From Botryllus schlosseri (Eukaryota): a DNA stretch of 64,000 nt. Below are positions 6,979 through 38,858 of this stretch, piece by piece (the stretch's first letter is position 1; every line of letters begins with the position of its first letter). The stretch spans positions 1,800,001 through 1,864,000 of the forward strand of contig CM119373.1 of assembly GCA_051294905.1 (NCBI GenBank), written 5' to 3'. Under the pieces are notes generated by a model that saw only the letters and a list, made by a program, of their open reading frames with translations, was not told the DNA's origin and did not search any database. A program made the position numbers and the translations under genes.

Positions 6979-9397
6979 TTGTAGAGACTTGCTCACGTTA
7001 CATTTAGCGCTGCTATTAAATTCAACATGAATGCGGGTAACAACACTCAGCAGTATCATCCTTTATGATACGATTACGAAATATTCTGACGACATAATTT
7101 TGTAGCTCTCAAATACAAGTATATTTAGTTACTCGTTTTTGCCAGAAAGCTGCAAAACACCTTTAATGTACAAATGACATCACTCTCGAAAGTTGATCAG
7201 TAGCCTTTAGCGCCTTTGCGATTTAGGCACGCAGTGCGCATCAGGATAAAATACCTAGTCAAAAATATTTTATGTAAAACAACCCGAGCTATCAGTATAA
7301 GTATCAATTTATTAATATTTTCATCATTTCAAAACACCACAAAACTTCGATACCATGAAAGGATAGGAAGATGTCAAAACTACTTGGAGTATAGCTAGCG
7401 TGACGGGGTTGTTATGAAGGGGAATAAGCAATCCAAAAGTACCCCAAATTCATTTTACATGATTTAAAATAAACCACTGCATTCATGGAATCATGAGTCG
7501 GTGGATATTTCGCGATGAGCGCGACTAAAAACGTTGTGATTTAACAGATTTTGTCGAATGTTAGTTTGCAATGAGAAACCAGGAATAATCATATGTCCTT
7601 ACTACACCATCTGCTGCGAGACCATTTTCTTCAGCGCCTCAACCGCGTCCAGAGCCAAGTGCCCTCTATTTCGCCCCCTGAGCGTTTCCGCCCCTTCAAA
7701 ATCCAAGTAGCTCCCTGGGAGGCGCTGGAGACAAGGTTAAGAACCACTGATCTAAATCATCACGAACTATATTGGTAAAATTACGTCTCCTCCAGCTTCA
7801 TAAACTGCTCATCTTCGACAGTACAATGCTCCCGGACGCATAGAAGAGTAGCGTACGACCAGTGTTGCTGATTATAAATTCTGTAGACGGAATTGGGCTC
7901 TGAGCTGTCGTAAGAAGTCGTCAGAAACAACATATACAAATGCGCGTGGTCGTGTTCGTGTAGTTTTTGCGCTATCACGAAGCAACTAACGATCCAGATT
8001 ACACGTTTAAATTCTAATCTTTTCCAAGTCTATATCATGGTATCATGCTCAATCTTCTAGAATGATAGATACTTTTGTACTCAGCGCTTCTTTGGAAATT
8101 GTGTCAATCATCACACCCATCTCTGATCTGAACATATAAAGTGTCATCACCATGTTTTCATCTGCTATCACACTAATCGAATTTTTGAATTGTTCTTATG
8201 CTCTAATTTTAATTCTAATCTAATTCATGAATTGTTCTTATGCTCTAATTCTAATCTAATTTATTGTTTTCCTGAAAATGCCTATTTGACCGCGGCATGT
8301 TGCAGCGAGTCCATCTCGCAAAGGGATATCCAGAGTCAAGCCGCAATTGCATTACTTACACCGTACAGAAATAGTAGTTGTTGTGCGACGAATAATAGCC
8401 ATACTGGAACAATTGTGACCCTTATCGCCGAATCATGTTATTTGTGCCATGAAAATGAATGTTGCAATCTTCCTTGATCTTTGCCTTTGGAACTCTTTTT
8501 GGACTACTTCCAGTCACGTATCTATTCATCATATATCTATCTCGTTTGCATACGACCTCTTCAGTGTCTTTTGCTGACGATTTTCGAAGCTCGAGTTCAA
8601 TTATTTAAACTGGGCTTTTCGTACGGCACTGCATACGCAGTGAGTTCAGCTACTAACGATTCGATATTAGGGCTATCCAGACATGTTGCTAGGTGAAAGA
8701 CTATCTCATCCTAAAGATTGGCTTTGGGGACGCCCTATAGCCCTAGTTTTCCAAGCGCCTCGGTGTCGAGTGCACTGTACGTCATGGCAATATCCCTATT
8801 CATGCCAGCTGACTCTCCATCGATGGAATGCTGTTGCCTTCGTTGAAGCTATTTCCGCTATAGCGAGGAATAGTGTTGTTGAGGACAGACGAATAGGTTT
8901 ATTTAATACAACAACAATAATTATTTGAAACTGAAATCAATTTTCGCATTTCAAAATGCTTTATTCGCGTTCTTCCAAATTCATAGATCAGATCGCCAGC
9001 CGCAAAATACGACTTCGCGGGCCGCCTATTGATGACCCGGGTATAGTGCAAAACGAGCGAAGCTTGATATACAGACGTTAACCAATCTCTTTGTTATGAG
9101 ACTCCACTGTGGTTTGATATGAACTGAACTTTTTGCTGTATTTATTTCTCATTCAGAATTTCATTCGATTTCCAAGTAGTTTTTCCGAATTCAGTAGCCA
9201 AATTCTAATTGTAAGTATAATCTAATTTGAAAATAACTGTGTTAATCTAATTCTAATTGTGATCTAATTTGAAAAAAATTGTATAGCTCTAATTATAATT
9301 CTAATCTAATTCGGAAATGCTAAAAATTTTCTAGTTGTCCTAGTCTGCCGCGTAAGTGGCGTCTTATAAAAGCTTATGAGTGGGCCGTGCTGCAGGT

Positions 9398-10528: not shown

Positions 10529-11378
10529 ATATTAAAATGGCTATCCGGACCACATATTAAAATGCTCCATCTCTAGGGTATTGAAAAAATCGGATACAGG
10601 TCCAAAATATGGCCCAGAAAAATGCCCGCCATTTTTGCCCCTACCTTGGCTAGGTAACGTGTCTAGCCGTTTTGAAAAGCTTATTAAATCGGCTGTTCAC
10701 CGTTGCTATTACAGCGTTAACACGCATGTAGTGTACACGACGAAACCCTTGTTACCCAACTCTCGAAAAGATGTACTTCCTGCCTTTGATGCAAGTAATG
10801 TTGTTTACCAATACAAGTACCACTGTGATAGTAGGTATGTAGGATGTACATCTCAAAGATTGTTTGAACGTATTAAGCAGCATATCCCAAAATTGTTTCG
10901 GTCAAAAACTTGCGCAAATGATCGCACGGAGCTCGCACGTCAGTGCAAATTGGCTGCAAAAACAGACTGCTATGATGATTACCAAGCATATGTTTCGTCA
11001 ATTGGTCAGCATAGGAGTGAAAACCTTGCCTGTGCACAGCACTATGATGACAATATGTTCACTGTCATTGCGCGTGGTAGGTCTGTGTTTCATTTAAAAG
11101 TGTTGGAGTCTACTATTATTCAGTTGAGCAAACCTATTTTATGATAACCTACAAATTTCTCATTAGTGCGTGTTGTTCCGTGCGTGTAATTGTTTATTTA
11201 CAAATTGTGCTGCTACTATAGTACCGTATGTCCGTATACTTCATAGTTTGTTATTGTTGCCATTGGTACAATGCGAATTTCATGGTTTGTGATTTTGATT
11301 GTTGCGTCATACTTTGCCTTTTTGGTTTTGATTTTAAATCTGTTTAAATCCCTTTAGTGTGCCGATAACTCTTGAAAA
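10529..11378 (+). mobile_element. 5'-truncated Penelope-like retroelement (linker + GIY-YIG endonuclease, ORF 10581-11144)
   Basis: YGPEKCPPFLPLPWLG...KDVLP...SNVVYQYKYHCDSRYVGCTSQRLFERIKQH...SSIGQH...HLKVLESTII. No RT domain. Host paralogous sequence resumes at 11379. Confidence 0.88.
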
Positions 11379-12551
11379 TATGATTTAATGTACTATTGTG
11401 TATATATGATTGATAATGGAGTATTCAAGTGAAAATTAAGGACAGGTGGCAAAATTTTTAACCGAGTTAGCTGATAGTCCGGCCAATGACAGATTTGGAG
11501 GTTTGAATCCGACCCGCGTTGCCATTTGAGTTTGACAACCCTGCTCTAAGCTGGGTCGCCATGGCGAGATAGCATAATGGTATGATCCACGGCTGCAACA
11601 CCAATTGGTTGCGGATTCGAGTCTGACCGAGGTCGACTCCAGACTTCCCAGCCAAATTTTAGCGGTGCTAGGCTCCCTTCTTGCGGTTTCTTAAAAAAAG
11701 CCTAGAAGTGGACGTGCTATGAGTGCTCTCAATATTGCAGGCCCCGGGTATTTTCTGCACAGCGATAAATGCATATTTTTAAAATCAAATGCCTCGTGGC
11801 ATTGAATTCAGGACAGTTTGTTTTACATGCAATCGAAATTCAAATCATTGGTAAAACAAAGTATATATTGCAAGACATTAAAAGCCGGTGATTTTGTCTA
11901 TTATAACATTTGAGATTCTATATAGTTGCTAAGATGTAAAGACCGAGTGTCTCATTTCGATTTCCCAAAACCGTTTATGAATACTGACTGAGTGCCGTAC
12001 AAACCTTAATACTGTCGTTATCGAGTGATCACTAGTAAATTATGAAAACTACATAAAGGTAAGCTTTAAAGCTGCCAAACACAGTAGACCTGCCGTCTCC
12101 GTGGATTCAGTCGGACGGATTTACATGCCGATGTATTACTGGCGACAACTTTTTGAAAGATGCAGAGATTGCTATCATCCCATTGTACAGAATTCTACGT
12201 CGAAATCGGCCCCATATATTTGTTACTCAGAAAACAGAGTTTCCAAATAATGTCAGGGAACTAGCTCATAGGTAATTTTACAAATTTCTATTGTGTTTGA
12301 GTGTATTCGATCAAATGAAATCTAGAAGCTTCTACTCGACTCGAGGATCAATTCTCGAATCGGAATCGTATCTCCTGAGCCCTCGATGTCGCTCAGTCAC
12401 CATTGCAATATTATGTTACTTGAAATGATGGCAAAGCAATCGTAGCACAGTAATGTGATACAAATAGTATTTAACCATTTAATGACAGAAGTTACAATTT
12501 CATTTTCGAAGGCTAATGAAAGTAATGTTATACGATATTTTATCATTTTAG

Positions 12552-12719
12552 TTGCAAATGCTCGTTATCATGGACAATTCAATGAATGAAGATGGATATG
12601 AAATACTCGTTCACATTCTGAAGCGGTCAGATTGCAAGGAATTGCAACTCCAATATTGTTGTCTCACCAAGACTAAGTTGCAAGGAGTATTGAACGGATG
12701 TCGGGATCAAAATATCCAG
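12552..12719 (+). CDS. Internal LRR exon A (168 nt, phase 0-0, two ~28-aa RI/NLR-like repeats): LQMLVIMDNSMNEDGYEILVHILKRSDCKELQLQYCCLTKTKLQGVLNGCRDQNIQ
   Basis: Acceptor atcattttag, donor cag|gtgcgt, open frame of 56 codons, LxxLxIxxN and CxxLxLxxCxL motifs. Confidence 0.85.
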
Positions 12720-13473
12720 GTGCGTCATCATGAAAAATCAGTAATATACAAGAAGACATGTCCCTAACGATTCAAAATTGTTCGTCATCCTACATCGCCT
12801 CAAAAAGTATGCAGCATAAAATCGTTCACCGTTTATCCTGGCGTTTACCAATACTCGTCTGAGATTCGAATACCGCAGGCGTTTCGTATTTTGCAACACA
12901 GAGAAGCTTGTACATTTTTGAAATAGTCAACGACGCGACAGGGTGGATATTATCAATATTGGAATATTCTTGACACAAATCTAACTGGTGAGGCCGCTTT
13001 AGTGTTAGATGATGCGGTTCCATGCACCTGTTGTCGTGGCATGGAATTTGGGAATTCTAGACAAACTGTTGCTGATGGAAATGCGGACAATAATTTGCGG
13101 CTTTGGTAAGGCGTCCCTGATCTACAGTGAAGTAATCGGCAGAAAAGGGCCAATGTTAAATTTAGGATTTCAGGCCGCAAATTGGACACAATTTCATACT
13201 TTTAAGTTGCTTATAAATTTGGGTGGAGATAGTCAATCACTGATTGTCCAATTGGGAGGTCAAGAAATAACAGCATGCAATAAAAGTGACTAATAACAAT
13301 TGGCCCACAGCATGATGCATCATTATATATAACTTGCCCCCCCCCCCCGGTTCGAAGATACCCCTCGATCAACTCTACTGGTGAATGGGATCACATGGGC
13401 TGAGAAAGGATTCATGCTTAATAGGAATATGTGAAACTGTTAACATTAATGACGAAATTCATTAGTGAATCTG

Positions 13474-13649
13474 AACAGCTTCTTGGAGCTACATAACTTC
13501 AATATCCGATTGAATAGTATATTCATACTGAAATGAACCCGAATATTTTCGGCTGACACTCGTTAGGGGTAATCGTCAGCAACTAGTGGAGAATTCAAAA
13601 GAACAGCGTATATCAACAATCATAACACAAAATATGACGTCACCAGCAG
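13474..13649 (-). mobile_element. 176-bp solo PLE terminal fragment with a mutated hammerhead (13537-13570, CTAACGA) and a 14-bp TSD
   Basis: Homologous to 49080-49222. Flanked by cattagtgaatctg at 13460-13473 and 13650-13663. Empty site in the paralog at 21648-21661. Confidence 0.85.
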
Positions 13650-16449
13650 CATTAGTGAATCTGGAAGTTTTTCGTTCCCATAACGTGACCACTCGCAATT
13701 TGGGTGCGTGTAGTAAGCGGATATGAAATAATATAGATAAGTCCGGAGCTCATCGGAAATGGACATGGATCCCTCAATATTGGTAGTTGGCGTCCAGCTA
13801 GTTCATCGCGACTAAGCCCTGGAATGCTGCCGTAGGCTACATGATTAATCGATATGCAGCCGTGAATAGTAAAAAGGTTGGCGACCCCTTGGAAATGAAT
13901 TCCAGCTAAGCTTTTCATTTAAGAGAGCTCGTTTCTCATGCACTTGAAATTCAAATCATTCAAACTTTTTTTTATAATGGTGTCGAAGCATATACACTTA
14001 TACAATCTTCCAGCGATTTCAATACCAATTGACAATATATATCAGTATTTTAATAATCTGTAATATGTATTGTGCTGCATCCGGAATATTTCGCGATCGG
14101 TATTTTTCGTTACATGTCGCTACATCTCTAATCGCAAAACCATGTATTCCAAGGCGCCCATTGTAAAATGCCAACATGAAACAAGGTTTTTGTTATCGCT
14201 GGCCACAGCGTCAATATGGGTATGCAATGTATTTTTAAGTATGTCGTATTTGACGAGGTGAAATTGTTCGATTGAAGGTTAACCGAAATAGCAGACTGAG
14301 ATTCCACAAATATCGTGACATTGTGATTTTCTATTTTTTAGCAATTTATGCGTTGCACGAATAAAAACCACATTCATGAATATTTGACTAGAACTGTCAT
14401 TGTACTTGACAGGGAGTACGCGTCATTTGTCAAAATTATGAGAAATAGGCAACATAGCCTAATCTAGTTTTAAGATATCATATTGATAAGTATAGGCTAT
14501 TGATTATGTCATTGCCCAAGTCAAAATAAAACAGCGTTGGATTTAACTTCACTGGTGTTACAGCGGTGGAGCGTAGCACTACGGTATTCACCCTCTTATA
14601 TCGGCGATAAAGATATGGATAAAGGGGACAAAGATGAAACTGACTACACATTCAGGGTGCAATAGAATGATCACTGTTGTTATAACAACTTGCGTCGATA
14701 GCGAAATACCGTGTCACGAGCTCAATTCCAATCAGTCGAAGCGGAGTTATTGCCGTCGCAAAATTTTGGATTTGAATAAAATAGTATTTACGGTGACCGA
14801 TTCTTTAATCATTTATTACAATTGTGCCCACCGTAAATACTATTTTATGCAAATCCAAATTTGTCGACATCAATCACTACGCTACGGCTGGTTTGAATGG
14901 AGCCAAATTTGGTGGACATCGTTTCTATCGACAACCTTACAATTTCATGGGTGAACAGAAAATTTTGAATTTTTTTTTATCAATTCTTATATAATAAATA
15001 AAAAAACTTTCTTCTCCTGTAGCAATGCGGCTACTGGTTGGAATTGAACCAAATTTGGTGTGTAGGCTTCAATTCGGTAATCTAACAATTTTATCAAGTA
15101 GCCAGTAGAATTTGAAAGAAAAAGTCATTTTTGAACACCCCTACTGTACAGTGTACAGACATTTGCTATTCCCATGCGCATAAGATGAACTATGATTTGA
15201 TATTAACGGGTGTGAGTATACACCATGGCACAAGAGACCTGAACGTACCTCATACTTATACCGCGGTATAAATTGAGTGCAATATTTTAATCCAAATTTT
15301 GCATGCACGTAGGATATATGACCTCGATCTCATTATGACTCATGTTTTGTTTTCATGTACCACCCTTTTCGGCCCCTTAGGTGCAAATACACACTATTTT
15401 CGCTAAAAGTGCACTCGAATAAAATATGCATGTTACGCATAAAACGCGTAGTATATTATGTCCATTAGAAATCGGTGTCTACTCTACCAGTTGTAAACCC
15501 AAATGTACGAACGGGCAGTGCATTCATCGATTCGGTATCTCTAAAATTCCATTGTGAGTCAACAAACCTGACTGAAATACGAGGTCACTGCAAATTGGTC
15601 GATTGTCGCTTCATTGCGAAACATTCATTATTTTCAATGAAACATTCTTTCTTTGACGATATAATCAGTGTTTTTCCAAATCGTAACGACCGTAAAAGCA
15701 TTTCAGCACTATTACACGCGGCATTTTTCATTTCATCGCCGATATCCACTAATTGCATATTAATATGAAATTCGCTAAAATATTCATTTATGCGAATGAG
15801 AATCTAGAGTTAGTGATCATTATGCAAAGGTGAATTGCAAGATATGGTCGGAAGTTTCATCGCCCTTATTCTTAAATAGGCAACACAACTGTGAGAAGTC
15901 CATCCGTCTGAAGTATAATTATGCGGTCGTTTTCACAATAAAATATTTTAAATTGATAATAATACAAACATCAAGTCAAGTGTTTAGATGTGCAAATCTG
16001 AATTTATTAGCTATGAAAATTCTGTAACCGAAAATATATAAAAAGGAACGATATTTATCATGTTCCCAGCTATATTCGGATGAACTCTCGCAACTTTCGT
16101 ATCTGATATCTTAAATTGGCTCATTAAACAAACGCTCTGTACGAATTCACATTCATATGACGATAATCAACATATGCGACTCGTAGCTTACATTGTCGTA
16201 AACTTGCTTACCTCAACCAGCCCTCTTGTATATAATTTAAACCAAACGAATATCGTTCATACGTTTATAATTGTATATCGTTGATAAGTAGGTGGGTAGG
16301 GTATTGAACTATATCAATTTTAAACATTCTGAGGTTTCGTATGTTGTCCTCTATTTTGGCTGATATTTAAAGACTGGCTACATCGCCATACTTGCGTAGT
16401 TGAGCAGTTCTGCGTATGCGTGAGCGATACAGCGCCTCTTCATTCCATT

Positions 16450-16613
16450 ACTCCTCGCCACTTAATCCGCGTAAGCCGTGACTTGCGCAAAGTCTAGAAG
16501 TGGGCCGTGCTATAAGTCGGCAGTTGACGAATAAATATGAAGAATATTGGCCTGGTGTGAATGGCCGTAGTAGTTGACAAACACCATGAATATCTCAAAA
16601 CAAACAAACAAAC
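16450..16613 (+). mobile_element. 3' half of SINE A with (AAAC)n tail, inside a GACTT-type hAT remnant (duplicate at 34447-34610)
   Basis: ctcctcgcca...agaagtgggccgtgctataagtcggcag...ggcctggtgtgaatggcc...aaacaaacaaac. Confidence 0.85.
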
Positions 16614-16717
16614 TATTTATTCGTTCGTCGATTCCGAATAAATGGGTACTTCATCTGTATTTAAAACAGTTAGCAAAATGTAATGACTTTGAATCATGTC
16701 CAGTACGTTGAAATTTC

Positions 16718-16865
16718 AACTTGACTTGACTACTGACTTGACTAGTGACTTGACTAGTGACTTGACTAGTGACTTGACTCGTGACTTGACTTGACTTGAC
16801 TTGACTTGACTTGACTTGACTTGACTTGACTTGACTTGACTTGACTTGACTTGACTTGACTTGAC
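16718..16865. repeat. (GACTT)n microsatellite plus 12-bp gacttgactagt units (shorter copy at 34715-34820)
   Basis: Direct reading. Expanded subterminal motif of the 53835-55206 family. Confidence 0.95.
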
Positions 16866-17974
16866 CCGAGTCACCTTTGAAAATCAAGTGACTTGACTTG
16901 ACTCGAGTCAAAATGAATTGGCAACAAAACGTTTCCATGAATCTCGACGAAGTCACAAAATCAATGTAGATACAGGCCAATGGCACACAAAGGCAGACAA
17001 ACGTTTACAGGGGATCCAAATATAAATAAGCAGTGGGACAGTATTGAATGCTTACACATCGGAATTGAATACTATATTGTTCCACATAATTCCATCGTTA
17101 ATAATTCAACGGTATGAAGTGTATGCTCGAGCAGTATAGCTAACCCGTCGCTTCCACAATTGCATGTCTTAAATTGATATTTATCCAAACTTCAAGTCAA
17201 AAATATGGATGTGCGAACCTGAATCTAGTAGCTGTGAAATTCTAAATCCGATATTGATCGAATGAACCCTGCAAGATTGATATCTGAAATCGGTTCATCA
17301 AACAAACGGTATGTGCGAATTCACAATCGTAATATCGAGAATCAACATCTGTGACTTTTCAGTGTCTTCTGATGGGAGTGCAATTCTTCAAAAAATATCA
17401 CAAACCATAACGTATTCTTTATTGTAGTCTTACCATAGCGGTACCCTATATAAAAAGATTGATGTGGCAATTATACAATTCATTTTTTATGTCGAAACAA
17501 TAATACACCGTGTCGACCGGCACTGATATCTTAAGCGTTTCGGCGTCGCGTGCATTCTACGTCATGGCAATCTGCCTATTCATACCAGCTGACTTTCCGT
17601 CGATGGAATGCTGATGCCTCCGTTGAAGCTATTTTCGCTATAGCGAGGAATAGTGTTGTTCAGGACAGACGAATAAGTTTATTTAAAACTACAACAATAA
17701 TAATTTGAAACTGAAATCATTTTCGCATTTCAAAATGCTTTATTCGCGTTCTTCCAAATTCACAGATCAGATCGCCGGCCGCAAAATACAACCTCGCGGG
17801 CCGCCTGTTGATGACCCCTGGTGTTGTGCAAAACGAGCAAAGCTTGATATACAGGCGTTAACCAATCTCTTTGTTATGAGACTCCATTGTGATTTGATAT
17901 GAACTGAACTTTTTGCTGCATTTATTTCTCATTCAAATTTTCATTCGATTTCCAAGTTTTTCCGAATTCAAATT

Positions 17975-18715
17975 CTGATGCTAATTATAATCTAATTTGG
18001 AAAAAAGCTGTGTAGCTTTAATTCTAATTCTAATCTAATTTGGAAAAATTGTATAGCTCTAATTCTAATTCTAATCTAATTTGGAAAAAGCTGTGTAGAT
18101 GTAATTCTAATTCTATTATAATCTGGAAAAAAGCTGTGTAGATTTAATTCTAATTTTAATTTAATTTGGAAAATATGCATAGCTCTAATTATAATTCTAA
18201 TATAATATGGAAAAAGCTGTGTGGATCTAATTCTAATTCTAATCTAATTTGGAAAAAGCTGTGTAGATTTAATTCTAATTTCAATCTAATTTGGAAAAAT
18301 TGTATAGCTCTAATTATAATTATAATCTAATTTGGAAAAAGCTGTGTAGATCTAATTCTAATTCTAATCTAATTTGGAAATAACTGTGTTGATCTAATTC
18401 TAATTCTATTCTAATCTGAAAAAAAGCTGTGTAGCTTTATTTCTAATTTGAATCTAATTTGGAAAAAGCTGTGTAGATCTAATTCTAATCTAATTCGGAA
18501 ATAACTGTGTTGATCTAATTCTAATTCTATTCTAATCTGAAAAAAAGCTGTGTAGCTTTATTTCTAATTTGAATCTAATTTGGAAAAATTGTATAGCTCT
18601 AATTATAATTCGAATCTAATTTGGAAAAAGCTGTGTAGATCTAATTCTAATTCTAATCTAATTTGGAAATAACTGTATAGCTCTAATTCTAATTCTAATA
18701 TAATTTGTAAAAGCT
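17975..18715. repeat. ~42-bp minisatellite (~18 units; consensus tctaattctaattctaatctaatttggaaaaagctgtgtaga)
   Basis: Counted directly. Lies just inside a MITE end (tagttgtccaagt). Paralogs at 9200-9320 and 29870-29990 have about 3 units. Confidence 0.95.
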
Positions 18716-20250
18716 TAAAAATTCTTAGTTGTCCAAGTAAGCGGTGTCATATAAAAGCATGAGTGGGCCTTGCAGCAAGTCAGCAGCTACGGATTTTAAA
18801 TGAAGCACATTGGCCCGGTGTAAATGACCATAGTATTCGACAAATCCCAAGATTACCTCAAAACAAACAAACAAGCGACTAAAAAGGGAGCATAAAAATA
18901 CTCCAACTTCTATCGTCGTTACTGCCACTGATTTAGCGATCCATAACTGTACTCAACAGGCAAATCATCGCATTTTTGCCAATTTCATTGTTCGCGAATA
19001 AAGTCGTTGCTAGAATATAAACCCTATGGTCCGTGATATGTTCTAATGTACTATTATGTATCTATATAATGATAGATAATAAAGTATTCAAGTGAAAATA
19101 CGGACATGTGACAAAATCTTGAAATGAGTTGACTGATGGTCCGGCCTGTGAGAGATTTGAAGGTTTGAATCCGACCCGCGTCGCCTTTTCAGATTCACAA
19201 TCCTGCTCTAAGCTGAATCGCCATGACGAGATAGCATAATGGTATGATCCACGGCTGTAACACCAATTGGTTGCGGGTTCGATGCTGACCGAGGTCGAAT
19301 CCAGAATTCCCAGCCAAGTGTTACAGATTTATCTAGGGCTATGCTCCTCTTAATTCGCCAGATCATCGGTAGTGGTTTCTTAAAAAAGCCTAGAAGTGGA
19401 TCGTGCTATGAGTGCTCTCAATATTGCAGGCCCTGAGTATCTTCTGCACAGCGATCAATGTATATTTTTATAATTGAATGCCTCTTGGCTTTGCATTCAG
19501 GACAGTTTGTTTTACATGCAATCGAAATTTAAATCATTGGTAAAACAGAGTATATATTGCACGACATTAATATTGCACACATTGTCTATTATAATATTTG
19601 GGATTCTATATAGTTGCTGAGTGACGTAAAGACCGAGTGAGTGTCTCACTTCGATTTCCCAAAAGTGTTTATGAATACTGGCTGAGTGCCGTAGAAACCC
19701 TATAGTACTGTCTTTATTGAGTGATCATTAGTAAATTAGTAATCATAAAAACTGCATAACGGTATGCTTTAAAGCTGCCAAAAACTGTAGACCCGTCTCC
19801 GTGGATTCACTCGGACAGATTTACATGCCGATATCCTAATGGCGACAACATTTTGAAAGAGGCAGAGATTGCTATCATTCCAGTCATCAGAATTCTACGT
19901 CGAAATCGGCCCCACATATTTGTTCCTCAGAAGGCCGAGTTTCAAATATTGCCAGGGAACTAGCTCGTAGGTAATTTTACAAATCAATATTGTGTTTGAT
20001 TGTACTCGATCAAATGAAATCTAAAACATTCTATTCGACTCGAGGATCAATTCTCGATTCGGAATCGTATCTTCCTAGCCCTGGATGTCGCCCGGCCACG
20101 ATTGCAATATTATTTTACTTGAAATGATGGCGAAGCAATTGTAGCAGAGTAATGTGATACTAATAGTATTTTACAGTTTATTGACAGGAATTTCAATTTC
20201 ATTTTCGAAGGCTAATGAAAGTAATGTTATACGATATTTTATCATTTTAG

Positions 20251-20418
20251 TTGCAAAGGCTCCTTATCATCGACAATTCAATGACTGAAGATGGATATGA
20301 AATACTCGTTCACATTCTGAAGCTGTCAGATTGCAAGGAATTGGTGCTCGAAAATTGTTGTCTCACCAAGACTAAGTTGCAAGGAGTGTTGAACGGATGT
20401 CGGGATCAAAATATCCAG
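20251..20418 (+). CDS. Internal LRR exon B (168 nt, phase 0-0), paralog of exon A: LQRLLIIDNSMTEDGYEILVHILKLSDCKELVLENCCLTKTKLQGVLNGCRDQNIQ
   Basis: Same splice sites as exon A. 11 nucleotide differences from exon A, no stops or indels. Confidence 0.85.
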
Positions 20419-22151
20419 GTGCGTCATCATGAACAATCCGTAATATCCAAGAAGACATGTCATCTTACGATTCGAAATTGTTCGTCATCCTACTTCGCCT
20501 CAAAGTCATGCAGCACAAAATCGTTCATCATTTATTCTATCGTTTACCAATACTCGGCGGAGGTAATTCGAATACCGCAGGGGTTTAGTATTTTGCAACA
20601 CAGATTACTTTGGACATTTTTAAAATTGTTGACGACGCGACAGCGTAGATATCATCAATATAGGAATATTCATGACATAAATCTAGCCGAAAAGGCCGAA
20701 AGAGTGATTTATCTAGGGCTAGGCTCCTCTTCATGCACCAGATCGGTGGGAGCGGTTTCTTAGAAAAAGCCTAGAAGTGGACCGTGCTATGAGTGCTCTC
20801 AATATTGCAGGCCCTGAGCATTTTCTGCACATCGATCAATATATATTTTTAAAATTAAATGGCTCTTGGCTTTGCATTCAGGACATTTGTTTTACATGAA
20901 ATCGAAGTTTGAATCATTGGTAACTCAGAGTATATATTGCACGACATTAAAAGCTGGTGATTTTGTCTATTATAACATTTGAGATTCTATATAGTTTCTG
21001 AGTGACGTAAAAACCGAGTGAGTGTTTGACTTCGATTTCCCAAAAGTGTTTATGAATACTGGCTGAGTGCCGTACAAACCCTAATACTGTCGTTATTGAG
21101 TGATCACTAGTAAATTAGTAATCCTAAAACCACATATAGATATGCTTTAAAGCTGCCAAACACAGCAGACCTGCCGTCTCCTTGGATTCAATCGGACAGA
21201 TTACATGCCGATATCCTAATGGCGACAACATTTTGTAAGAGGCAAAGATTGCTATCATTCCAGTCAACAGAATTCTACGTCGAAATCGGCCCCACACACG
21301 CGTCCTTGATCTACCATGAGGTAATATGCAGAAACGAGCCGATGTTGCATTTAGGATTTCGGGCCGAAAATTGGGCACACTTTCATACTTTTACGTTGCC
21401 TATAAATTAGGGTGGATAGAGCTATGTCGATCAATGATTGTCAACTTGGGAGGTCAAGAAATAACAGCATGCAACAAAGTGACTGATAAAAATTGGCCAT
21501 CAGCATGATGCACCATTATGCAAAACTTGCCCTCAGTTTTTGAAGACACCCCTTGATCAACTCTACCGGTGAATGCGATCACGGGGGCTGAAAAAGAATT
21601 AATGTTTGATAGGAATATGTGAAACTATCAACAATAATGACGAAATTCATTAGTGAATCTGAAAGTTTTTCGCACTTCGCGCGATCATAACCGTTCCCGT
21701 AACATGACCAATTGACCACTCACGATTTCGGTGCCGGTGCGTGTAGTAAGCGAATATGAACTAATAGATAAGTCTGGAGCTCACCGGAAATGAAGATGAA
21801 TCTCTTAACATCGGTATTTTGCATCCTGATAGTTCATCGCGACTATCCCATGGAATGTGGCCGCAGGCTACATGATTAATCGTAATGCAGCCGTGAATAG
21901 GAAAAAGGTTTGCAACCACTGATTAACCCCTTGGAAATGAATTCCAGCTAAGCTTTTCATTCAAGAGAGCTTGATTCTCATGCACTCAAAATTCGAATCA
22001 TTCAATTTTTTTTCATCCCGGTGTTGAAGCATTTACAATTTGCCAGCGACGTCTAAACTAGTTGACAATACGCAACAGTATTTTAATAATCTGTAATATG
22101 TAGGCTATTGTGCTGCATCCGGAAAATTTCGCGAGCCTTATCTTTCATTAC

Positions 22152-25100
22152 GTGTCGCTATATATCTGGCCGCAAAACCATGTATTCCATGAAGCTCATT
22201 GTAAAATGACAGCATGTAACGAAGTCTATTTAAGCGCTGTTAACGAAACGACCGGCGGACGGTCATATTATCAGTATATATTATAGGATAATAGCCCACG
22301 TTAGAAATCTAACCACCAACGCCGACTGAGTAACGAAAATCAATTTAGTGTTTGATGTTTGACTCAAATGCACTCGGGGGCCAATTTCCAAATTTTTGAC
22401 TACCCTGCGGAACACGACGTCAATATGGGTATTCAATGTATGTTCAAGTATGTCGTATTTGACGAGGTGAAATTGTACTATTGGCCGGAATAGCAGATTG
22501 AGATTCCGCAAATATAGTGAACTTATGATTTACTACTTATTTTACCAATTTACGCGTGGCACCAATGAAAACCACATTCACAAATATTTGACTAAAATTG
22601 TCGTTCTACTAGGCAGGGAGTACGCATCATTTGTCGCAATTATGAGAAATAGGCACCATAACCGAATCTAGGTTTGGGGTCCCATATTGATAAGTGTAGG
22701 CCCGGGGTAGGCAAACCCCGGCACGCGTGCCATTTGTGCCACGCGAAATGATTTTTCATGGCATACCAAATGATTTCACGGAAACGACATATTCATACCA
22801 TGTTTTTGCAAAAAGTGAAACAGAAGTTTTCAAAACGTGAAATGCTCGTAGGCGATCCAAAATTATTATTATTATTTCACATTTTACAGTGGTGCTTCTC
22901 GCCTTTTTCAGGCTATGTGCACCACGACACGAATATTTGTAATGTTCATAAGTCTTTGTCTTTGTGTTAATCTTGGGGACGACTTCTTCATTCTTTCGCA
23001 CATCCAGAGGTCAGTCTCTCTCGCACCAATGCGTCCCCGTCGAGGTCTTTGCTGCCGACTTCTAGGACGGCTCACTTTCAATCTGAGCTTTTTAATGCAC
23101 TGCAACTGCAGTGAGATCGGCAATGGGTAGCCCAGAGAAATCTCCGACGCATAGAGCCTGATGTGTTAATTATGCTGTGGGAACCCCCAATAAATAGATA
23201 AATATATATGTTGTATTTATAAAATGTTTTAAAAATCTATGCATAGTGTACAAAAATGAGTCAACCGTATTAGCAGTTGTGAAAGAACATCAACCGAACA
23301 TCGTTTGAAAACGTTTGGATTCTTTAGTCTAGGAGTGTTATTCACTGTGTAGCCTGCGGGAGTGCAACTACTGAACCGGCATTACGACGCTGGGCATCTT
23401 CACGCTATAGAATACATGACCTAGATATAGAGTTTCGGACAATATCCGACCATGCGACTAACAGGCGGTCTATGCGTTGCCAAAGTGATTGGCGGCGATA
23501 AAACCTTGAAACAAAATAGCCGCTGCATCATGGACAAAACGTTAGACATTGATATGTCCACTGGCAAGGCGCCGAAGTGACCAGCGCCGAATGACCAGCG
23601 CCCGCACCTGCAGCTTGAGTCGCACGTATCAAATGAGATCTGTCAAGGAAAATAATCAGCCCCGTGTCCAAATGCGAATCGTGTTCGTCTCTCGGAAGTA
23701 GAGTCTGGTGTGCACGCGATTCAATATCTCGAGCAACGCCAATCCTTACCGCTTGACTGCGACCTTTGCCGACAAATATAGTGTCAGACCGACCTTAATG
23801 TGACGCCAAACCGATTTGAATGAGACTGTGGGGAGGGGGGAAACATTTTTCATCATCATCAGACCATATCATCGTAGCTACACTGATTGGCCCGTCATTT
23901 ATGATTTATTGGATACGGTTACCAACATAGTGGACTTGGAAACGATCCAATCAACCACACAAGATCGATCATTGCCCAATGGCGCGACTGAAAATAAATT
24001 ATGTAAATATCACGTGAGCCTACATAGAAGCGATAGGTCGGGTACGGTAGTGTCCAAAATTCAATCCCTTCACGGCCAATCAAGAATTGCTGGCGTGACG
24101 AATGGCGTTGCCAGGCGTAGAAAAACGGTTGGTGGTGTTCCTTGCTGCTTGAAACGTTAAATATTAATACATTAAATGTTTGGCACGCAAGCTGGTAAAA
24201 AATCGACATTTTTTGACATTTTGGCACGCTGCACATAAAAGGTTGCCGGCACCTAGTATAGGCTATTGGCCATGTCATTGCCCAAGTCAAAATAGAACAG
24301 CGTTGGATTTTACTTCACTGGTGTCACAGCGGTGGAGCGTGCCATTGCGGCATTCGCCATCTTTAATCGGCCATAAAGCTACGGATGAAGGGATCAAAGA
24401 TGCAACTGGCTGCACATTAAGGGGGCAACAGAATGCTAGATGTTGTTATAACAACTTGCGTCGATAGCAAAATACCATGTCACGAGCTTATCGTCTATTA
24501 CGATCCCCTGGTCACGCGAATAATAATTTTTGCCTCCATGGTTATAAACATGTCACGACACTCCGAGTTACTCGGAGTCGACTCGAATCATTTTCATCTT
24601 GTCACCGAGTCATTCCGATTAATTCAGCGTAAGGTCGCCTCCAACTCCAAGTCACAGATTTCAGTCTCGAATCATATGCGGTTCATGTTTCATCATCAAG
24701 ATTAGGCTATTCTATGTAGGCCTAATAGAAGATCTTCCACCGCATAGTAGCGTTTGAATGTGATGCCATATAGCTAATGTTCTCGTGGATCGCGTGTTCG
24801 AGACCCAGGCTTATATCATTCGGGTTACCGCTATCAAAAATACTGCTGGTGTAAATAGAGAAAACAATGACGTTACTGGATTATTGCAAATTAATCGCCT
24901 ACGAGCAAATTTGCGTGCTTTTTGTGCTATCAAGAAACATCAAGTCGATCCCAAAAAACTCCTAAAACCCAGCCGATACTAACCGAACCCAAGTCACACT
25001 AATCTCCATGCTAATATGCTTTCATCATTTCTGGCCTTATTCACGACACATCGCAGCGTAGATATCTTGACGATTGCGTTCTGCAACAAATTATACCACT

Positions 25101-28100
25101 GGTCAACAAAATAAAATAAAAATAATTCGGCAGAAAATCTAGGTGCTGTTATAGGGTTTTCAAGGTTGCCAATGACGAATACTACTTTTGTTTTGCCAGA
25201 TTGACTTGCCCACCAGACTTGAGTCTTTTTTCCGTGTCATTTGCTGTCATCATTCTGGAGTTCGGCTCTCTCTTCGCCTGAACTTTTCAATACGCTGTAT
25301 TTACAGCGGATCGGAGTTGAGGAGCCCAGATAGACCACATATAAACATGGCAGAGCCGATACTTGAACCACCAACCATTGGTGTCGTGACTGCAGTGTTT
25401 AACCAACTGCGCCACTCGCTTCCACGTGACATGAATATATATCCTTATTGTTATGACGCGGCCACATGTTAACGTAGCTTATATAGCGTTACAACTATAG
25501 GGTTCGCTCGCATGATTCTAACAATAATGAAGACGTCATAGTTCAGTCGTAACAAATGATACATGGTGTTCTCTATTCTAACTCTAATCCTTTTAATGCT
25601 GTCTGTTGATCCATGCGTAACCTGAATAATTCCGACTTTCAGCTGCATCGTATTATTTGCACGTTTCCATACCGCTGTTTCACACCTACAGAATAGTCTG
25701 CCGTTCACTGTCGCAACAAGAACCACAATTATACACATTTATACATTCATTGCATTTATTACTCTGAAATAAAACTATTCACAAAAACACGTACAATCGT
25801 ATCAATAATCACCAGAATAATTCAGGTATTCATTGGTTGAAAATCCTTGCGCTCTTTTTGTCAAGAATGCCATAGTAGTATCTTCGCCCACATCTGATGT
25901 TTTACACTGTAACTGTTTCCCAGTCACGGAAAATTCATCCGGTTCCATGAATTCGATTATCTAAGGCAGTGGTTCTCAACCTTTTTTGACACGCGCCCCC
26001 CCTTGGAGATGGTCAAAAAAATCGCGCCCCCTGACCCCCCTTGCATTTATCGTCATGTCAAAAAGAGCACATCATCTAATACAGAGGTGGGCAACGTTTT
26101 TGATAATCATGACTGCATTTAGATTGCTTATGTAGCGTAAGGCCGCATTCCAGGGCATAGCCGCAATGAACGATCTGGACGCAAAATTCCTATGGTAAAC
26201 TGTCCATATCCATCTCCGGTGAACTCCGGACTATTCTACTTTTCACAATGGCCTATTGTATGCGCCGAAATCGCGAGTGGCAATGTTATGAATGATTGCC
26301 GGGAGGCGCATATTGTCGCGCGGAGCGCGAAAATCTTTCAGGGCCGCGAACGAATTGTTATTTCTTGCCATTTCCCATTCCGGCTCAGATTAAGAAGGGC
26401 GCTACTGCAATAAAATCGAAAAATGAAGTCGTGTTGAATTGCACGGAGGGCGAAGAAAATTTCAAAAATTGCGGAAAATGCGGGAGTGAATTCGTAATTG
26501 CAATTTTCATGTCTACGGCCGCCAACACATCCTAATTGATCGAATGAGGCGTCGACGGCCGCTCGAATTCCCTTCTAGGACCGCAGGCTGCCCATTCCTG
26601 ATCTAATAGTATACATAAGGTATATCTTACGTCAATTTTGAATCTGCATTCCAGTTGTTGAGTCTTTTACATTGCTGACAAATTTCTCCAAACTTGTTTG
26701 AAAATAACAATAAAACATTGAACAAGACATCCATTAATTAATTTCAAGGTAGGTCACCCTGAGACTAATCCTGATGCTGGTAGTGAGTACAGAGAGCAAG
26801 GCGTCGTTCTGTCCTGCCAGGCTAAATTTGATCAGTTTTGGAAATTAATAAAATTGTGTTGATTTATAGCCTAATCGAGGGCGAAACCGTGCAACCTATG
26901 TTGCATCTAAGTCTGCCTTAGGCATTGCAGTTCACAAGCTACTAACAACAGCTGCCCAGCGCGACAAGCTTTAGGCTACTGTCAAAGCTATGAATCAATG
27001 AATGACTTACACGTGGGAATTGCTCTCTATATCTCCAAAGAATATCAAAAATTTGCTCAAATGAAGTTGAAATCAGACTATACTCCGTTGAGCGCGGTTG
27101 CTAGAGTTTGTATTTTGCAAGCTTTCCTGAATATGGAATAATTTTCATCTCCATCAATCGTCTTCTCATAATGGATGTGAAACACATGTTCAGATATGTA
27201 CAATTTATACTGACCTTGTCAATTTCTCGCGCCCCCCCCCCCCTATACTGACTTCGTCAATTTCTCGCGCCCCCCAGGTTGAGAACCTCTGATCTAAGGT
27301 TTTAGTGGTCCGAAACCTAGTGAATCATGAAAATAAGTCTGGTGCCCCCCTATTTTAAGGGTGTAGTAAAAACCCAATGTGTAAGTGGTCGAAGTCTGCC
27401 TTCCGGTTAGGAATTCACTATTAGACCACTCGACTGATCAAGGGTATAATTTTTTTTGCTGTTTTCGGGATCAAATCCAGGTTGTTATAACAACCATCGG
27501 GTAAAAACTACGGGCTCATAGCATTTGGTTCGAGATCGATGGACACATCTCGAATTCTCCTCTACGATTGCCAATACGGTGAATAAAGTTGTATTCGTTT
27601 CGTTTTATTGCTTTGTGTGACCACTTAATCAACTGAGAATGTTGTAGAGACTTGCTCACGTTACATTTAGCGCTGCTATTAAGTTCAACATGAATGCGGG
27701 AAACAACACTCAGCAGTATCATCCTTTATGATACGATTACGAAATATTCTGACGACATAATTTTGTAGCTCTCAAATACAAGTATATTTAGTTACTCGTT
27801 TTTGCCAGAAAGCTGCAAAACACCTTTAATGTACAAATGACATCACTCTCGAAAATTGATCAGTAGCCTTTAGCGCCTTTGCGATTTAGGCATGCAGTGC
27901 GCATCAGGATAAAATACCTAGTCAAAAATATTTTATGTAAAACAACCCGAGCTATCAGTATAAGTATCAATTTAATAATATTTTCATCATTTCAAAACAC
28001 CACAAAACTTCGATACCATGAAAGGATAGGAAGATGTCAAAACTACTTGGAGTATAGCTAGCGTGACGGGGTTGTTATGAAGGGGAATAAGCAATCCAAA

Positions 28101-31100
28101 AGTACCCCAAATTCATTTTACATGATTTAAAATAAACCACTACATTCATGGAATCATGAGTCGGTGGATATTTCGCGATGAGCGCGACTAAAAACGTTGT
28201 GATTTAACAGATTTTGTCGAATGTTAGTTTGCAATGAGAAACCAGGAATAATCATATGTCCTTACTACACCATCTGCTGCGAGACCATTTTCTTCAGCGC
28301 CTCAACCGCGTCCAGAGCCAAGTGCCCTCTATTTCGCCCCCTGAGCGTTTCCGCCCCTTCAAAATCCAAGTAGCTCCCTGGGAGGCGATGGAGACAAGGT
28401 TAAGAACCACTGATCTAAATCATCACGAACTATATTGGTAAAATTACGTCTCCTCCAGCTTCATAAACTGCTCATCTTCGACAGTACAATGCTCCCGGAC
28501 GCATAGAAGAGTAGCGTACGACCAGTGTTGCTGATTATAAATTCTGTAGACGGAATTGGGCTCTGAGCTGTCGTAAGAAGTCGTCAGAAACAACATATAC
28601 AAATGCGCGTGGTCGTGTTCGTGTAGTTTTTGCGCTATCACGAAGCAACTAACGATCCAGATTAAACGTTTAAATTCTAATCTTTTCCAAGTCTATATCA
28701 TGGTATCATGCTCAATCTTCTAGAATGATAGATACTTTTGTACTCAGCGCTTCTTTGGAAATTGTGTCAATCATCACACCCATCTCTGATCTGAACATAT
28801 AAAGTGTCATCACCATGTTTTCATCTGCTATCACACTAATCGAATTTTTGAATTGTTCTTATGCTCTAATTTTAATTTTAATTCCAATCTAATTCATGAA
28901 TTGTTCTTATGCTCTAATTCTAATCTAATTTATTGTTTTCCTGAAAATGCCTATTTGACCGCGGCATGTTGCAGCGAGTCCATCTCGCAAAGGGATATCC
29001 AGAGTCAAGCCGCAATTGCATTACTTACACCGTACAGAAATAGTAGTTGTTGTGCGACGAATAATAGCCATACTGGAACAATTGTGACGCTTATCGCCGA
29101 ATCATGTTATTTGTGCCATGAAAATGAATGTTGCAATGTTCATTGATCTTTGCCTTTGGAACTCTTTTTGGACTACTTCCAGTCACGTATCTATTCATCA
29201 TATATCTATCTCGTTTGCATACGACCTCTTCAGTGTCTTTTGCTGACGATTTTCGAAGCTCGAGTTCAATTATTTAAACTGGGCTTTTCGTACGGCACTG
29301 CATACGCAGTGAGTTCAGCTACTAACGATTCGATATTAGGGCTATCCAGACATGTTGCTAGGTGAAAGACTATCTCATCCTAAAGATTGGCTTTGGGGAC
29401 GCCCTATAGCCCTAGTTTTCCAAGCGCCTCGGTGTCGAGTGCACTGTACGTCATGGCAATATCCCTATTCATGCCAGCTGACTCTCCATCGATGGAATGC
29501 TGTTGCCTTCGTTGAAGCTATTTCCGCTATAGCGAGGAATAGTGTTGTTGAGGACAGACGAATAGGTTTATTTAATACAACAACAATAATTATTTGAAAC
29601 TGAAATCAATTTTCGCATTTCAAAATGCTTTATTCGCGTTCTTCCAAATTCATAGATAAGATCGCCAGCCGCAAAATACGACTTCGCGGGCCGCCTATTG
29701 ATGACCCGGGTATAGTGCAAAACGAGCGAAGCTTGATATACAGACGTTAACCAATCTCTTTGTTATGAGACTCCACTGTGGTTTGATATGAATTGAACTT
29801 TTTGCTGTATTTATTTCTCATTCAGAATTTCATTCGATTTCCAAGTAGTTTTTCCGAATTCAGTAGCCAAATTCTAATTGTAAGTATAATCTAATTTGAA
29901 AATGACTGTGTTAATCTAATTCTAATTGTGATCTAATTTGAAAAAAATTGTATAGCTCAAATTATAATTCTAATCTAATTCGGAAATGCTAAAAATTTTC
30001 TAGTTGTCCTAGTCTGCCGCGTAAGTGGCGTCTTATAAAAGCTTATGAGTGGGCCGTGCTGCAGGTATTGTTTGTTTGTTTTGGGGTATTCATGGTGTTT
30101 GTCGACTACGATGGTCATTTACACCAGGCCGACATTCTTTTTATTTTCCGTAACTGCCGACTTATAGCACGGCTCACCTCTAGGCTTTTGTAAGACACCG
30201 CTGACGCGGATGAGGTGGCGAGGAGGAGCCTAGGTAAACCTCCAACACTTGGGTATCGAGATTCCCGTGCTGCAGGTCAGCAGCTACGAAATTTAAATGA
30301 AGCACATTGGCCTGGTGTAAATGACCATAGTAGTCGACAAACCCCATGAATACCTCAAATCAAACAAACAAGCGACTAGAAAGGGAGCATAGAAATACGT
30401 CAACTGATATCGTCGTTAGTGCCACTGATTTAGCGCTCCATAACTGTACTCAACAGGCAAATCATCACAATTTTGCCAATTCCATTGTTCGCGAATAAAT
30501 TCGTTGCTAGAATATAAACCCTATGATCCGTGATATGATTTAATGTACTATTATGTATATATGATTGATAATAAAGTATTCAAGTGAAAATACGGACATG
30601 TGGCAAAACTTTGAAACGAGTTGACAGATGGTCGGGCCCGTGAGAAATTTGAAGATTTTAATCCTACCCGAGTAGCCATTTGAGTTTGACAACCGTTCTC
30701 TAAGCTTAATTGCGATGACGAGATAGCATAATGGTATGATCCACGGCTGCAACACCAATTGGTTGCGGGTTCGAGTCTGACCGAGGTCGCCTCCAGAATT
30801 CCCAGCCAAGTGTTAGAGGTTTATATAGGGCTAGGCTCCACTTCATTCACCAGATCGGCGCTAGCGATTTCTTAAAAAAGGCTAGAAGTGGATTTTGCTA
30901 TGAGTGCTCTCAATATTGCAGGCCCTGAGTATTTTTCTGCACAGCGATCAATGTATATTTTTAAAGTTAGATGCCTCTTGGCTCTGCATTCAGAACAAGT
31001 CGTTTTACATGCAATCTAAATTCAAATCATTGGTAAAACGGAGTATATATTGCACGACATTAAAAGCTGGCGATTTCGTCTATTATAACATTTGAGATCG

Positions 31101-34100
31101 ACCGAGACCGAGTGTCTCATTTCGATTTCCCAGAAGTGTTTATGAATACGGGCTGGGCACCGTTTAAACCCTAATATTGTCGTTATCGAGTGATCACATA
31201 TTAAAATGGCTATCCGGACCACATATTAAAATGCTCCATCTCTAGGGTATTGAAAAAATCGGATACAGGTCCAAAATATGGCCCAGAAAAATGCCCGCCA
31301 TTTTTGCCCCTACCTTGGCTAGGTAACGTGTCTAGCCGTTTTGAAAAGCTTATTAAATCGGCTGTTCACCGTTGCTATTACAGCGTTAACACGCATGTAG
31401 TGTGCACGACGAAACCCTTGTTACCCAACTCTCGAAAAGATGTACTTCCTGCCTTTGATGCAAGTAATGTTGTTTACCAATACAAGTACCACTGTGATAG
31501 TAGGTATGTAGGATGTACGACCACTCGCAATTTGGGTGCGTGTAGTAAGCGGATATGAAATAATATAGATAAGTCCGGAGCTCATCGGAAATGGACATGG
31601 ATCTCTCAATATTGGTAGTTGGCGTCCAGCTATAGTTCATCGCGACTAAGCTCTGGAATGCTGCCGTAGGCGACATGATTAATCGATATGCAGCCGTGAA
31701 TAGTAAAAAGGTTGGCGACCCCTTGGAAATGAATTCCAGCTAAGCTTTTCATTTAAGAGAGCTCGTTTCTCATGCACTTGAAATTAACATCATTCAAACT
31801 TTTTTTTATAATGGTGTCGAAGCATATACACTTATACAATCTTCCAGCGATTTCAATACCAATTGACAATATATACCAGTATTTTAATAATCTGTAATAT
31901 GTATTGTGCTGCATCCGGAATATTTCGCGATCGGTATTTTTCGTTACATGTCGCTACATCTCTAATCACAAAACCATGTATTCCAAGGCGCCCATTGTAA
32001 AATGCCAACATGTAACAAGGTTTTTGTTATCGCTGGTAACGAAACGACCGGCGAACGGTCATATTATCAATATCTATTATAGGATAATAACTCATGGTAT
32101 AAATCTAGCCGACTTAGTGAAGAAAATCGATTTAGTGTTTGATGCTTGACTCATATGTACTCGGGATCCAATTTCCTAGTTTTTGATCACCCCGCTGGCC
32201 ACAGCGTCAATATGGGTATGCAATGTATTTTTAAGTATGTCGTATTTGACGAGGTGAAATTGTTCGATTGAAGGTTAACCGAAATAGCAGACTGAGATTC
32301 CACAAATATCGTGACATTGTGATTTACTATTTTTTAGCAATTTATGCGTTGCACGAATAAAAACCACATTCATAAATATTTGACTAGAACTGTCATTGTA
32401 CTTGACAGGGAGTACGCATCATTTGTCAAAATTATGAGAAATAGGCAACATAGCCGAATCTAGTTTTAAGATATCATATTGATAAGTATAGGCTATTGAT
32501 TATGTCATTGCCCAAGTCAAAATAAAACAGCGTTGGATTTAACTTCACTGGTGTTACAGCGGTGGAGAGGTAGCACTACGGTATTCACCCTCTTAAATCG
32601 GCGATAAAGATATGGATAAAGGGGTCAAAGATGAAACTGACTACACATTCAGGGTGCAATAGAATGCTCACTGTTGTTATAATAACTTGCGTCGATAGCG
32701 AAATACCGTGTCACGAGCTCAATTCCAATCAGTCGAAGCGGAGTTATTGCCGTCGTAAAATTTTGGATTTGAATAAAATAGTATTTACGGTGACCGATTC
32801 TTTAATCATTTATTACAATTGTGCCCACCGTAAATACTATTTTATGCAAATCCAAATTTGTCGACATCAATCACTACGCTACGGATGGTTTGAATGGAGC
32901 CAAATTTGGTGGACATCGTTTCTATCGACAACCTTACAATTTCATGGTTGAACAGAAAATTTTGAATTTTTTTTTATTAATTCTTATATAATAAATAAAA
33001 AAACTTTCTTCTCCTGTAGCAATGCGGCTACTGGTTGGAATTGAACCAAATTTGGTGTGTAGGCTTCAATTCGGTAATCTAACAATTTTATCAAGTAGCC
33101 AGTAGAATTTGAAAGAAAAAGTCATTTTTGAACACCCCTACTGTACAGTGTACAGACATTTGCTATTCCCATGCGCATAAGATGAACTATGATTTGATAT
33201 TAACGGGTGTGAGTATACACCATGGCACAAGAGACCTGAACGTACCTCATACTTATACCGCGGTATAAATCGAGTGCAATATTTTAATCCAAATTTTGCA
33301 TGCACGTAGGATATATGACCTCGATCTCATTATGACTCAGGTTTTGTTTTCATGTACCACCCTTTTCGGCCCCTTAGGTGCAAATACACACTATTTTCGC
33401 TAAAAGTGCACTCGAATAAAATATGCATGTTACGCATAAAACGCGTAGTATATTATGTCCATTAGAAATCGGTGTCTACTCTACAAGTTGTAAACCCAAA
33501 TGTACGAACGGGCAGTGCATTCATCGATTCGATATCTCTAAAATTCCATTGTGAGTCAACAAACCTGACTAAAATACGAGGTCACTGCAAATTGGTCGAT
33601 TGTCGCTTCATTGCGAAACATTCATTATTTTCAATGAAACATTCTTTCTTTGACGATATAATCAGTGTTTTTCCAAATCGTAACGACCGTAAAAGCATTT
33701 CAGCACTATTACACGCGGCATTTTTCATTTCATCGCCGATATCCACTAATTGCATATTAATATGAAATTCGCTAAAATATTCATTTATGCGAATGAGAAT
33801 CTAGAGTTGGTGATCATTATGCAAAGGTGAATTGCAAAATATGGTCGGAAGTTTCATCGCCCTTATTCTTGAATAGGCAACACAACTGTGAGAAGTCCAT
33901 CCGTCTGAAGTATAATTATGCGGTCGTTTTCACAATAAAATATTTTAAATTGATAATAATACAAACATCAAGTCAAGTGTTTAGATGTGCAAATCTGAAT
34001 TTATTAGCTATGAAAATTCTGTAACCGAAAATATATAAAAAGGAACGATATTTATCATGTTCCCAGCTATATTCGGATGAACTCTCGCAACTTTCGTATC

Positions 34101-38700: not shown

Positions 38701-38858
38701 CTTTAAGCTTTTCCCTCTCACGTTTCGGTATGCCACATGTTGAATATCGTACATTTGTTTTGCCGCGAACATATTCAGGTACCTAACCACGTATGCATAA
38801 CCTATTATGCAATATGATTTGCGAAGTACAATGCAAGATTTGTGCATGTTGGTTTCAG

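Follow-up and report, generated by a model that had tools for sequence, protein, structure and literature searches.

Agnathan variable lymphocyte receptors (VLRs) are extracellular, somatically assembled and secreted or glycosylphosphatidylinositol (GPI)-anchored, and Dscam is built with mutually exclusive immunoglobulin (Ig) exons. Modularity and skipping of leucine-rich repeats (LRRs) were reported for NLRP3 (Hoss et al., 2019, PMC6642158), the Podospora NACHT receptors encoded by het-d and het-e carry repeats that evolve in concert within and between loci and vary in number (Paoletti et al., 2007, PMC1805685), and alternative splicing was reported for the brown-algal ROCO genes (PMC3341825; PMC11378527), each as far as the available excerpts of these papers go. 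Here, we describe a window of 64,000 nucleotides of Botryllus schlosseri (C3:1800001–1864000, the whole stretch of DNA analysed), together with searches covering the 495-Mb assembly, and in it a 168-nt, phase-0, two-repeat LRR exon, which we call V. We consider it likely that V belongs to an NLR whose LRR solenoid is assembled from interchangeable exons, with reshuffling in the germline and selection for variety on the concave face.

A DNA search of the genome with the V exon returned at least 40 matches, 27 of them at 1.49–2.15 Mb on C3 (+ strand), and 25 of these 27 cluster copies show 90–100% identity. The same interval holds three NACHT exons on the same strand, one per gene (1422156, 1696722 and 1929385), as well as three copies each of the upstream LRR exons U1 and U2 and of the downstream exon C, and we therefore recognize three tandem NLR genes, with one NACHT, U1, U2 and C exon each and with 5, 7 and 15 V copies. 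The window covers the 3' part of gene 2, the middle one of the three paralogues (~142 kb), in which the NACHT exon at C3:1696722 is followed by U1 and U2, each a single LRR exon, and then by the seven V exons and exon C, with introns of 0.7–18 kb. This map was built from match positions and small stretches, not from the full cluster sequence, and the genome searches scored 40 of 41, 106 of 201, 150 of 314 and 150 of 337 candidates, so that the counts are lower bounds. The NACHT exon of gene 2 is open, reaches 51.9 bits for PF05729 (cut-off 26.7) and would be joined to the V exons by splicing; HD2 exons were seen in gene 3, the only gene whose HD2 exons were read. The following exons of gene 2 lie in the window:

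12552–12719, + strand: exon A, V copy 6 of 7, 168 nt, phase 0-0
20251–20418, + strand: exon B, V copy 7 of 7, 168 nt, phase 0-0
38859–39029, + strand: constant LRR exon C, 171 nt, one per cluster gene, the last exon identified

Exon C allows either onward splicing at a GT or read-through to a stop nine codons on. Further downstream, at 41236–41346, we noticed an acceptor followed by 36 codons that open with an LRR-like strand pattern and by a stop, an unverified candidate for the last exon. Two separate one-exon genes were considered and rejected.

Exons A and B were the starting pair, which a first-pass annotation of the window had described as paralogous LRR exons diversified on the ligand-facing strand; they now stand as the last two of seven copies in one gene, within a pool of 27 copies in three genes. 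A pyrimidine tract and AG stand before each of them, and GT after it. The description of the pair in the first-pass annotation was reproduced throughout, with 11 nucleotide differences in 168, eight replacements (M3R, V5L, M7I, N12T, R25L, Q32V, which changes all three bases, Q34E and Y35N) and a single silent change, at codon 46. Six of the eight replacements sit at exposed positions of the two LxxLxL strands, that is, six in ten exposed strand codons against two in the other 46 (Fisher p 1.6e-4), and the enrichment persists against the 27 other non-scaffold codons (p 0.002). The pair alone does not exceed a neutral rate (seven changes in ~26 non-synonymous sites, compared with 78 in 633 sites of the introns, p 0.065), and the case for diversification therefore rests on the further copies.

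All 30 V copies that were fetched are open and have AG/GT ends, a deletion of 6 nt being the only one among them, and the 27 cluster copies are all open and intact. The selection tests were run on the 25 close copies, with identical ones collapsed to 23 and the five diverged copies (L026–L030) excluded. In these 25 copies, codons 3, 5, 7, 30, 32, 34 and 35 take four to seven residues each, most scaffold sites are invariant, and the seven-residue surface signature occurs in 22 distinct forms. Over 300 pairs, the ten exposed strand codons have a proportion of non-synonymous differences (pN) of 0.256 and the 46 remaining codons one of 0.028. The proportion of synonymous differences (pS) is 0.096, and divergence in the flanking introns is 0.105 over 290 alignable pairs and 0.116 over 192. 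The strands thus diverge faster than silent sites and introns, at more than twice the intron value, and the scaffold much slower, at about one quarter of it. Site models agree with the comparison to introns, twice the log-likelihood difference (2dlnL) being 43.0 for M1a/M2a, 44.6 for M7/M8 and 42.8 for M8a/M8, with omega of 6.0–6.3 on 15% of sites and posteriors above 0.99 for codons 3, 5, 30, 32 and 34 and of 0.84–0.89 for codons 7 and 35. Two of the checks that the first-pass annotation had proposed, on genomic copies and on flanking introns, bear out its suggestion: rather than being evenly spread with dN/dS near 1, change is concentrated on the strands.

The signal stays significant when each half of the exon is fitted on a tree of its own, when codons 5 and 32 are dropped, and within gene 2 alone (seven copies, p 2.8e-4) or gene 3 alone. 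In a recombination null, simulated without selection on four reshuffled trees in 46 runs, the highest 2dlnL was 16.5 and no run reached 43. When A, B and their four near-twins were left out, the 19 remaining copies still had a mean of 4.1 amino-acid states at strand sites and of 1.5 at the others (permutation p 4.5e-5), and the choice of strand sites is therefore not circular. About seven exposed strand residues (3, 5, 7, 30, 32, 34 and 35) are under diversifying selection, and the V scaffold is under purifying selection.

The assignment of V to the LRRs is based on its spacing pattern, on structure prediction and on homologues. An AlphaFold model of A has strands at residues 3–6 and 30–33 and helices at 13–25 and 40–51, that is, two predicted strand-helix units of 28 residues, and the alternation of LRR strands would place the variable residues on the concave side. 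The Logan protein P0014, a natural homologue that has several units in succession and then one resembling C, was folded with a predicted local distance difference test (pLDDT) score of 86, and its best fold matches are the NLRP1 LRR and ribonuclease inhibitor (E ~1e-4). By the prediction for A and the matches of P0014, the C-terminal LRRs of gene 2 are of the ribonuclease-inhibitor type. The top matches of a V profile are Styela clava proteins (XP_039248824.1, E 3e-54; XP_077976009.1, 1e-34; XP_039262562.1, 2e-27). XP_039248824.1 (LOC120326569) has 2508 aa with NACHT, NOD2_WH and repeats, and XP_077976009.1 (LOC120336047) has alternating 56-aa units that vary at the same strand positions as V.

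A second exon type, X, provides an internal control. Intact X exons, one or more, are present in genes 1 and 3 and in many paralogues, interleaved with V, and the ancestral unit was probably an X-V pair. Gene 2 has six X remnants, and the five that were read are all stopped, frameshifted or truncated; two of them (L046 and L047) are frameshifted, and the others are:

7796–7843, + strand: X remnant, acceptor retained, stop at codon 16
28459–28506, + strand: X remnant, duplicate of the copy at 7796, stop at codon 16
35578–35670, + strand: X remnant cut after 31 codons, without the second repeat, 55% identical to an intact gene-3 X

The last one has a candidate GT after codon 30. Unneeded exons thus do decay in this array, and all its V exons have stayed intact.

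The array also keeps traces of duplication, loss and exchange, which we delimited as follows:

11378–12996, + strand: duplication unit around A, with ~1.1 kb of upstream intron, the exon and ~0.3 kb downstream; it matches the B unit at 85% identity
19036–20698, + strand: duplication unit around B
19570–35514, + strand: tandem duplicate (97–99%) of the segment from V copy 5, just left of the window, to 17534, which produced B
10850–13686, + strand: 2.8-kb segment with exon A, absent from the duplicate (junction 31518/31519)
19894–20504, + strand: conversion-like tract with 2 mismatches in 611 nt to the gene-3 copy L008

The absence of the 2.8-kb segment is best read as the loss of a duplicated exon, because the open reading frame (ORF) that crosses 10849 is cut at the junction. 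B and V copy 5 (L010) differ at 12 of 1139 nt, three of them in the exon, where two alter codons 32 and 34. The exon of B is identical in L008, and the edges of the tract around it are sharp (27 mismatches in ~343 nt upstream and 19 in ~204 nt downstream, or 8–9% divergence), the shape expected of gene conversion. Exon A also has a twin in gene 3 (L001), identical in the exon and 98% identical over the surrounding 3.2 kb. The mean distance between V exons is 13.1 nt within gene 2, 13.1 within gene 3 and 12.8 between them, and in U1 and U2 the two genes have only 34 and 30 of 56 residues in common. The same strand-1 allele is paired with different strand-2 alleles across V copies, and linkage within the exon falls with distance (rho -0.24, p 0.01). 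V exons are thus gained and lost along with blocks of intron, and they are exchanged within and between the three genes.

Around exon C, positions 35925–40579 are 97–99% identical to their gene-3 counterpart, introns included. As the 5' exons differ widely between genes 2 and 3, this points to a recent exchange of the 3' end; no intact X precedes C in the gene-2 version. The starts of V copies 4 and 5 of gene 2 (L024 and L010; C3:1797675 and 1798569) are only 894 nt apart, the exon unit having undergone a short tandem duplication. Tandem arrays are present at 17974–18712 (period 42 nt), at 16719–16865 and 34716–34840 (5 nt) and at 52768–52952 (36 nt), the 42-nt one lying between A and B. ORF fragments at 10536–11141 (+), 49251–49763 (-) and 57256–57681 (-) have no Pfam match and presumably derive from retroelement endonuclease or reverse-transcriptase pieces, which they resemble; the first of them is the one severed by the deletion junction in the duplicate.

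We propose that the V exons would be spliced successively into a ribonuclease-inhibitor-type solenoid, of about 20 repeats in gene 2 and perhaps with some skipping, in which the variable residues would line the concave face and set which protein or other ligand binds. Ligand binding would relieve the autoinhibition of the NACHT module. Unequal crossing-over and gene conversion in the germline would generate the diversity, and the selection that keeps it would most likely come from pathogens or non-self cells. The first-pass annotation had proposed a variable innate immune receptor, and the NACHT exon of the same gene supports its receptor reading; immune function, ligand binding and transcription we infer.

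The blocks of 97–99.9% identity within the window and between genes 2 and 3 could suggest that the copy number is partly an artefact of assembly, or that genes 2 and 3 are alleles set in tandem. We regard this as very unlikely, since U1 and U2 differ strongly between the two genes, identical exons have diverged flanks with sharp tract edges, the duplicate carries a deletion of its own, and selection is also detected in gene 2 alone. Even less credible is that the V copies are decaying, unspliced duplicates whose pattern arose by chance or as an artefact of gene conversion; it could draw on the lack of any transcript seen, on the dead X-type exons of the array and on the loss of the intact X before C. 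The 27 intact cluster copies beside decayed X copies and the opposite behaviour of pN on and off the strands speak against it, and on these grounds neutral decay was rejected. Selection by pathogens is the usual reading of NLR LRR faces, which counts against a driver of another kind, as does the lack of data tying the locus to a fusion or rejection phenotype. Recognition of self and non-self between individuals, or conflict with selfish elements, would be compatible with the same architecture, and we hold it to be decidedly unlikely; the present data do not identify the ligand, and the same evolutionary signature was described for the fungal allorecognition genes het-d and het-e in the available part of that report (PMC1805685).

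How the V exons are used in transcripts is a separate matter. V is in frame with U2, with V and with C, and the sequence alone therefore permits chaining, skipping or exclusive choice. Near-identical phase-0 exon arrays between single constant exons, the 22 distinct signatures in 25 copies and the gene-2 introns of 0.7–18 kb would suit alternative cassettes, by a Dscam-like exclusive choice or by heavy combinatorial skipping, so that the surface would differ per transcript or cell, and skipping of LRR exons is known from human NLRP3 and brown-algal ROCO genes, according to the excerpts available (PMC6642158; PMC11378527). We see this as possible but unlikely. Complementarity of the docking/selector type, searched for with two target introns, was not above the reversed-target control (11–12 nt in 18–22 of 25 flanks, against 11–13 nt in 17–18 of 25), and the splice sites of all V copies are near-identical. 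The interleaving of X and V, the strict alternation of units in the Styela models, the successive units of P0014 and the missing docking signal favour a chained repeat. It is likewise doubtful that a repertoire exists within the individual, in which regulated or stochastic choice, or somatic recombination, of hypervariable LRR exons would give cell-specific faces to an intracellular NLR; if true, the sister group of vertebrates would diversify a cytosolic receptor in the manner of Dscam or VLRs.

Some observations weigh against, or limit the case for, the chained, germline-reshuffled NLR that we favour. No transcript of gene 2 was seen: RNA placement on 20000–39400 (two raw runs, with 6 and 13 in 100 of the reads, and two contig sets, at 86% likeness) was swamped by repeats, with raw-read depths of 0.27 and 0.42 in the bin of B and of 0 and 0.06 in that of C; none of the 15 RNA joints shown (of 251) touches B or C, and no RNA data set was listed for the exon-C region. 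Word-indexed protein searches returned nothing for exon A or the gene-1 NACHT exon (E 1e-20) among longer proteins, nor for the V alignment among those of 30–98 aa, and hence no junction-spanning protein of B. schlosseri. The Styela chains come from automatic gene models, and such models would string together alternative exons as well, provided that these are in frame. In genes 1 and 3 an intact X precedes C, in gene 2 none does, and the terminal exon of gene 2 was not identified, the three pattern matches past C being unverified. Among 122 genome matches to the Death domain (PF00531) none is near the cluster (CARD, DED and PYD were not searched); ascidian NLRCs were reported to have no N-terminal effector domain in the accessible portion of one study (PMC11508797). 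On the structural side, the model of A alone is weak (pLDDT 63.7), Pfam assigns no LRR family to A, B or C, and the concave position of the variable residues is predicted from the LxxLxL alternation, not from side-chain coordinates. As to selection, the codon model is a home-made fit on a fixed nucleotide tree with naive posterior site calls, not codeml, nine of the 46 null runs exceeded the nominal 5% threshold, and the per-half and per-gene values (2dlnL 15.7–17.2) are at the edge of the null, only the full set being clearly beyond it.

Short repeats at 25236–25423 and 22588–23234 draw hundreds to thousands of loose-ended RNA reads; they are probably short interspersed elements (SINEs) expressed from other loci, and one of them we take to be tRNA-like. 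NACHT matches number at least 94 genome-wide, with 94 of 224 candidates scored, and other NLR paralogues have arrays of different LRR exon types at C7:28.47–28.66, C12:17.13–17.39, C1:23.4–24.96 and C9:3.9–4.3 Mb; in the C7 array, two LRR exon types alternate in pairs ~580 nt apart. Short ORFs with nearly the same score make up many of the Death-domain matches; they form inverted pairs ~5–24 kb apart on many contigs, some of them inside NLR clusters (e.g., C4:20656892(+)/20667428(-), C3:12480720(+)/12490834(-) and C12:17220158(-)/17243607(+)), and they resemble a mobile element whose long terminal inverted repeats contain a Death domain.

The array is a base-level record of how an NLR binding face changes, with gains, losses, conversion tracts and selected residues, and the decayed partner exon X is its built-in neutral control. 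It makes two questions testable: is splicing a means by which invertebrate chordates vary their cytosolic receptors, and do haplotypes of the array follow pathogens or allorecognition? A literature search, with subscription journals largely outside its coverage, gave no description of such a scheme for a tunicate NLR, and the available excerpts of two further papers (PMC11192531; PMC9505182) hold nothing on such arrays.

Among the systems to which the V genes can be compared, the Styela models also have long runs of 56-aa two-repeat units, but they are distant in sequence and are automatic models without assigned function. Agnathan VLRs and arthropod Dscam1 share with V a bank of variable cassettes and a diversified binding face; neither the somatic assembly of the former nor the exclusive choice of the latter is demonstrated here, and a VLR was rejected, as the cassettes are spliceable exons within a NACHT gene. 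Vertebrate NLRP3 has the same NACHT-LRR layout and frame-preserving two-LRR exons, of 171 nt there and 168 nt here, whereas the accessible part of its description holds no pool of near-identical exons exchanged between genes with a positively selected face (PMC6642158). The brown-algal genes (2012, PMC3341825; Teng et al., 2024, PMC11378527), in the excerpts available, resemble the V genes in that each exon encodes one repeat unit, exons are shuffled, dead copies of exons lie in introns and sites on the concave face are under positive selection; they differ in encoding ROC-COR GTPase or NB-ARC-TPR proteins, in their 72-nt phase-2 single-repeat exons and in their unrelated lineage. In het-d and het-e, a few residues of the interaction surface are under positive selection, as here, according to the accessible text (PMC1805685), and the number of repeats varies there, as it does here among paralogues of one assembly (5, 7 and 15) with recent gain and loss; those repeats are fungal and of the WD40 type, whereas here each LRR unit is an exon that moves with kilobases of intron. 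The V array thus works like an NWD gene, but is not one, and the scheme that it follows is already in print for fungi and brown algae.

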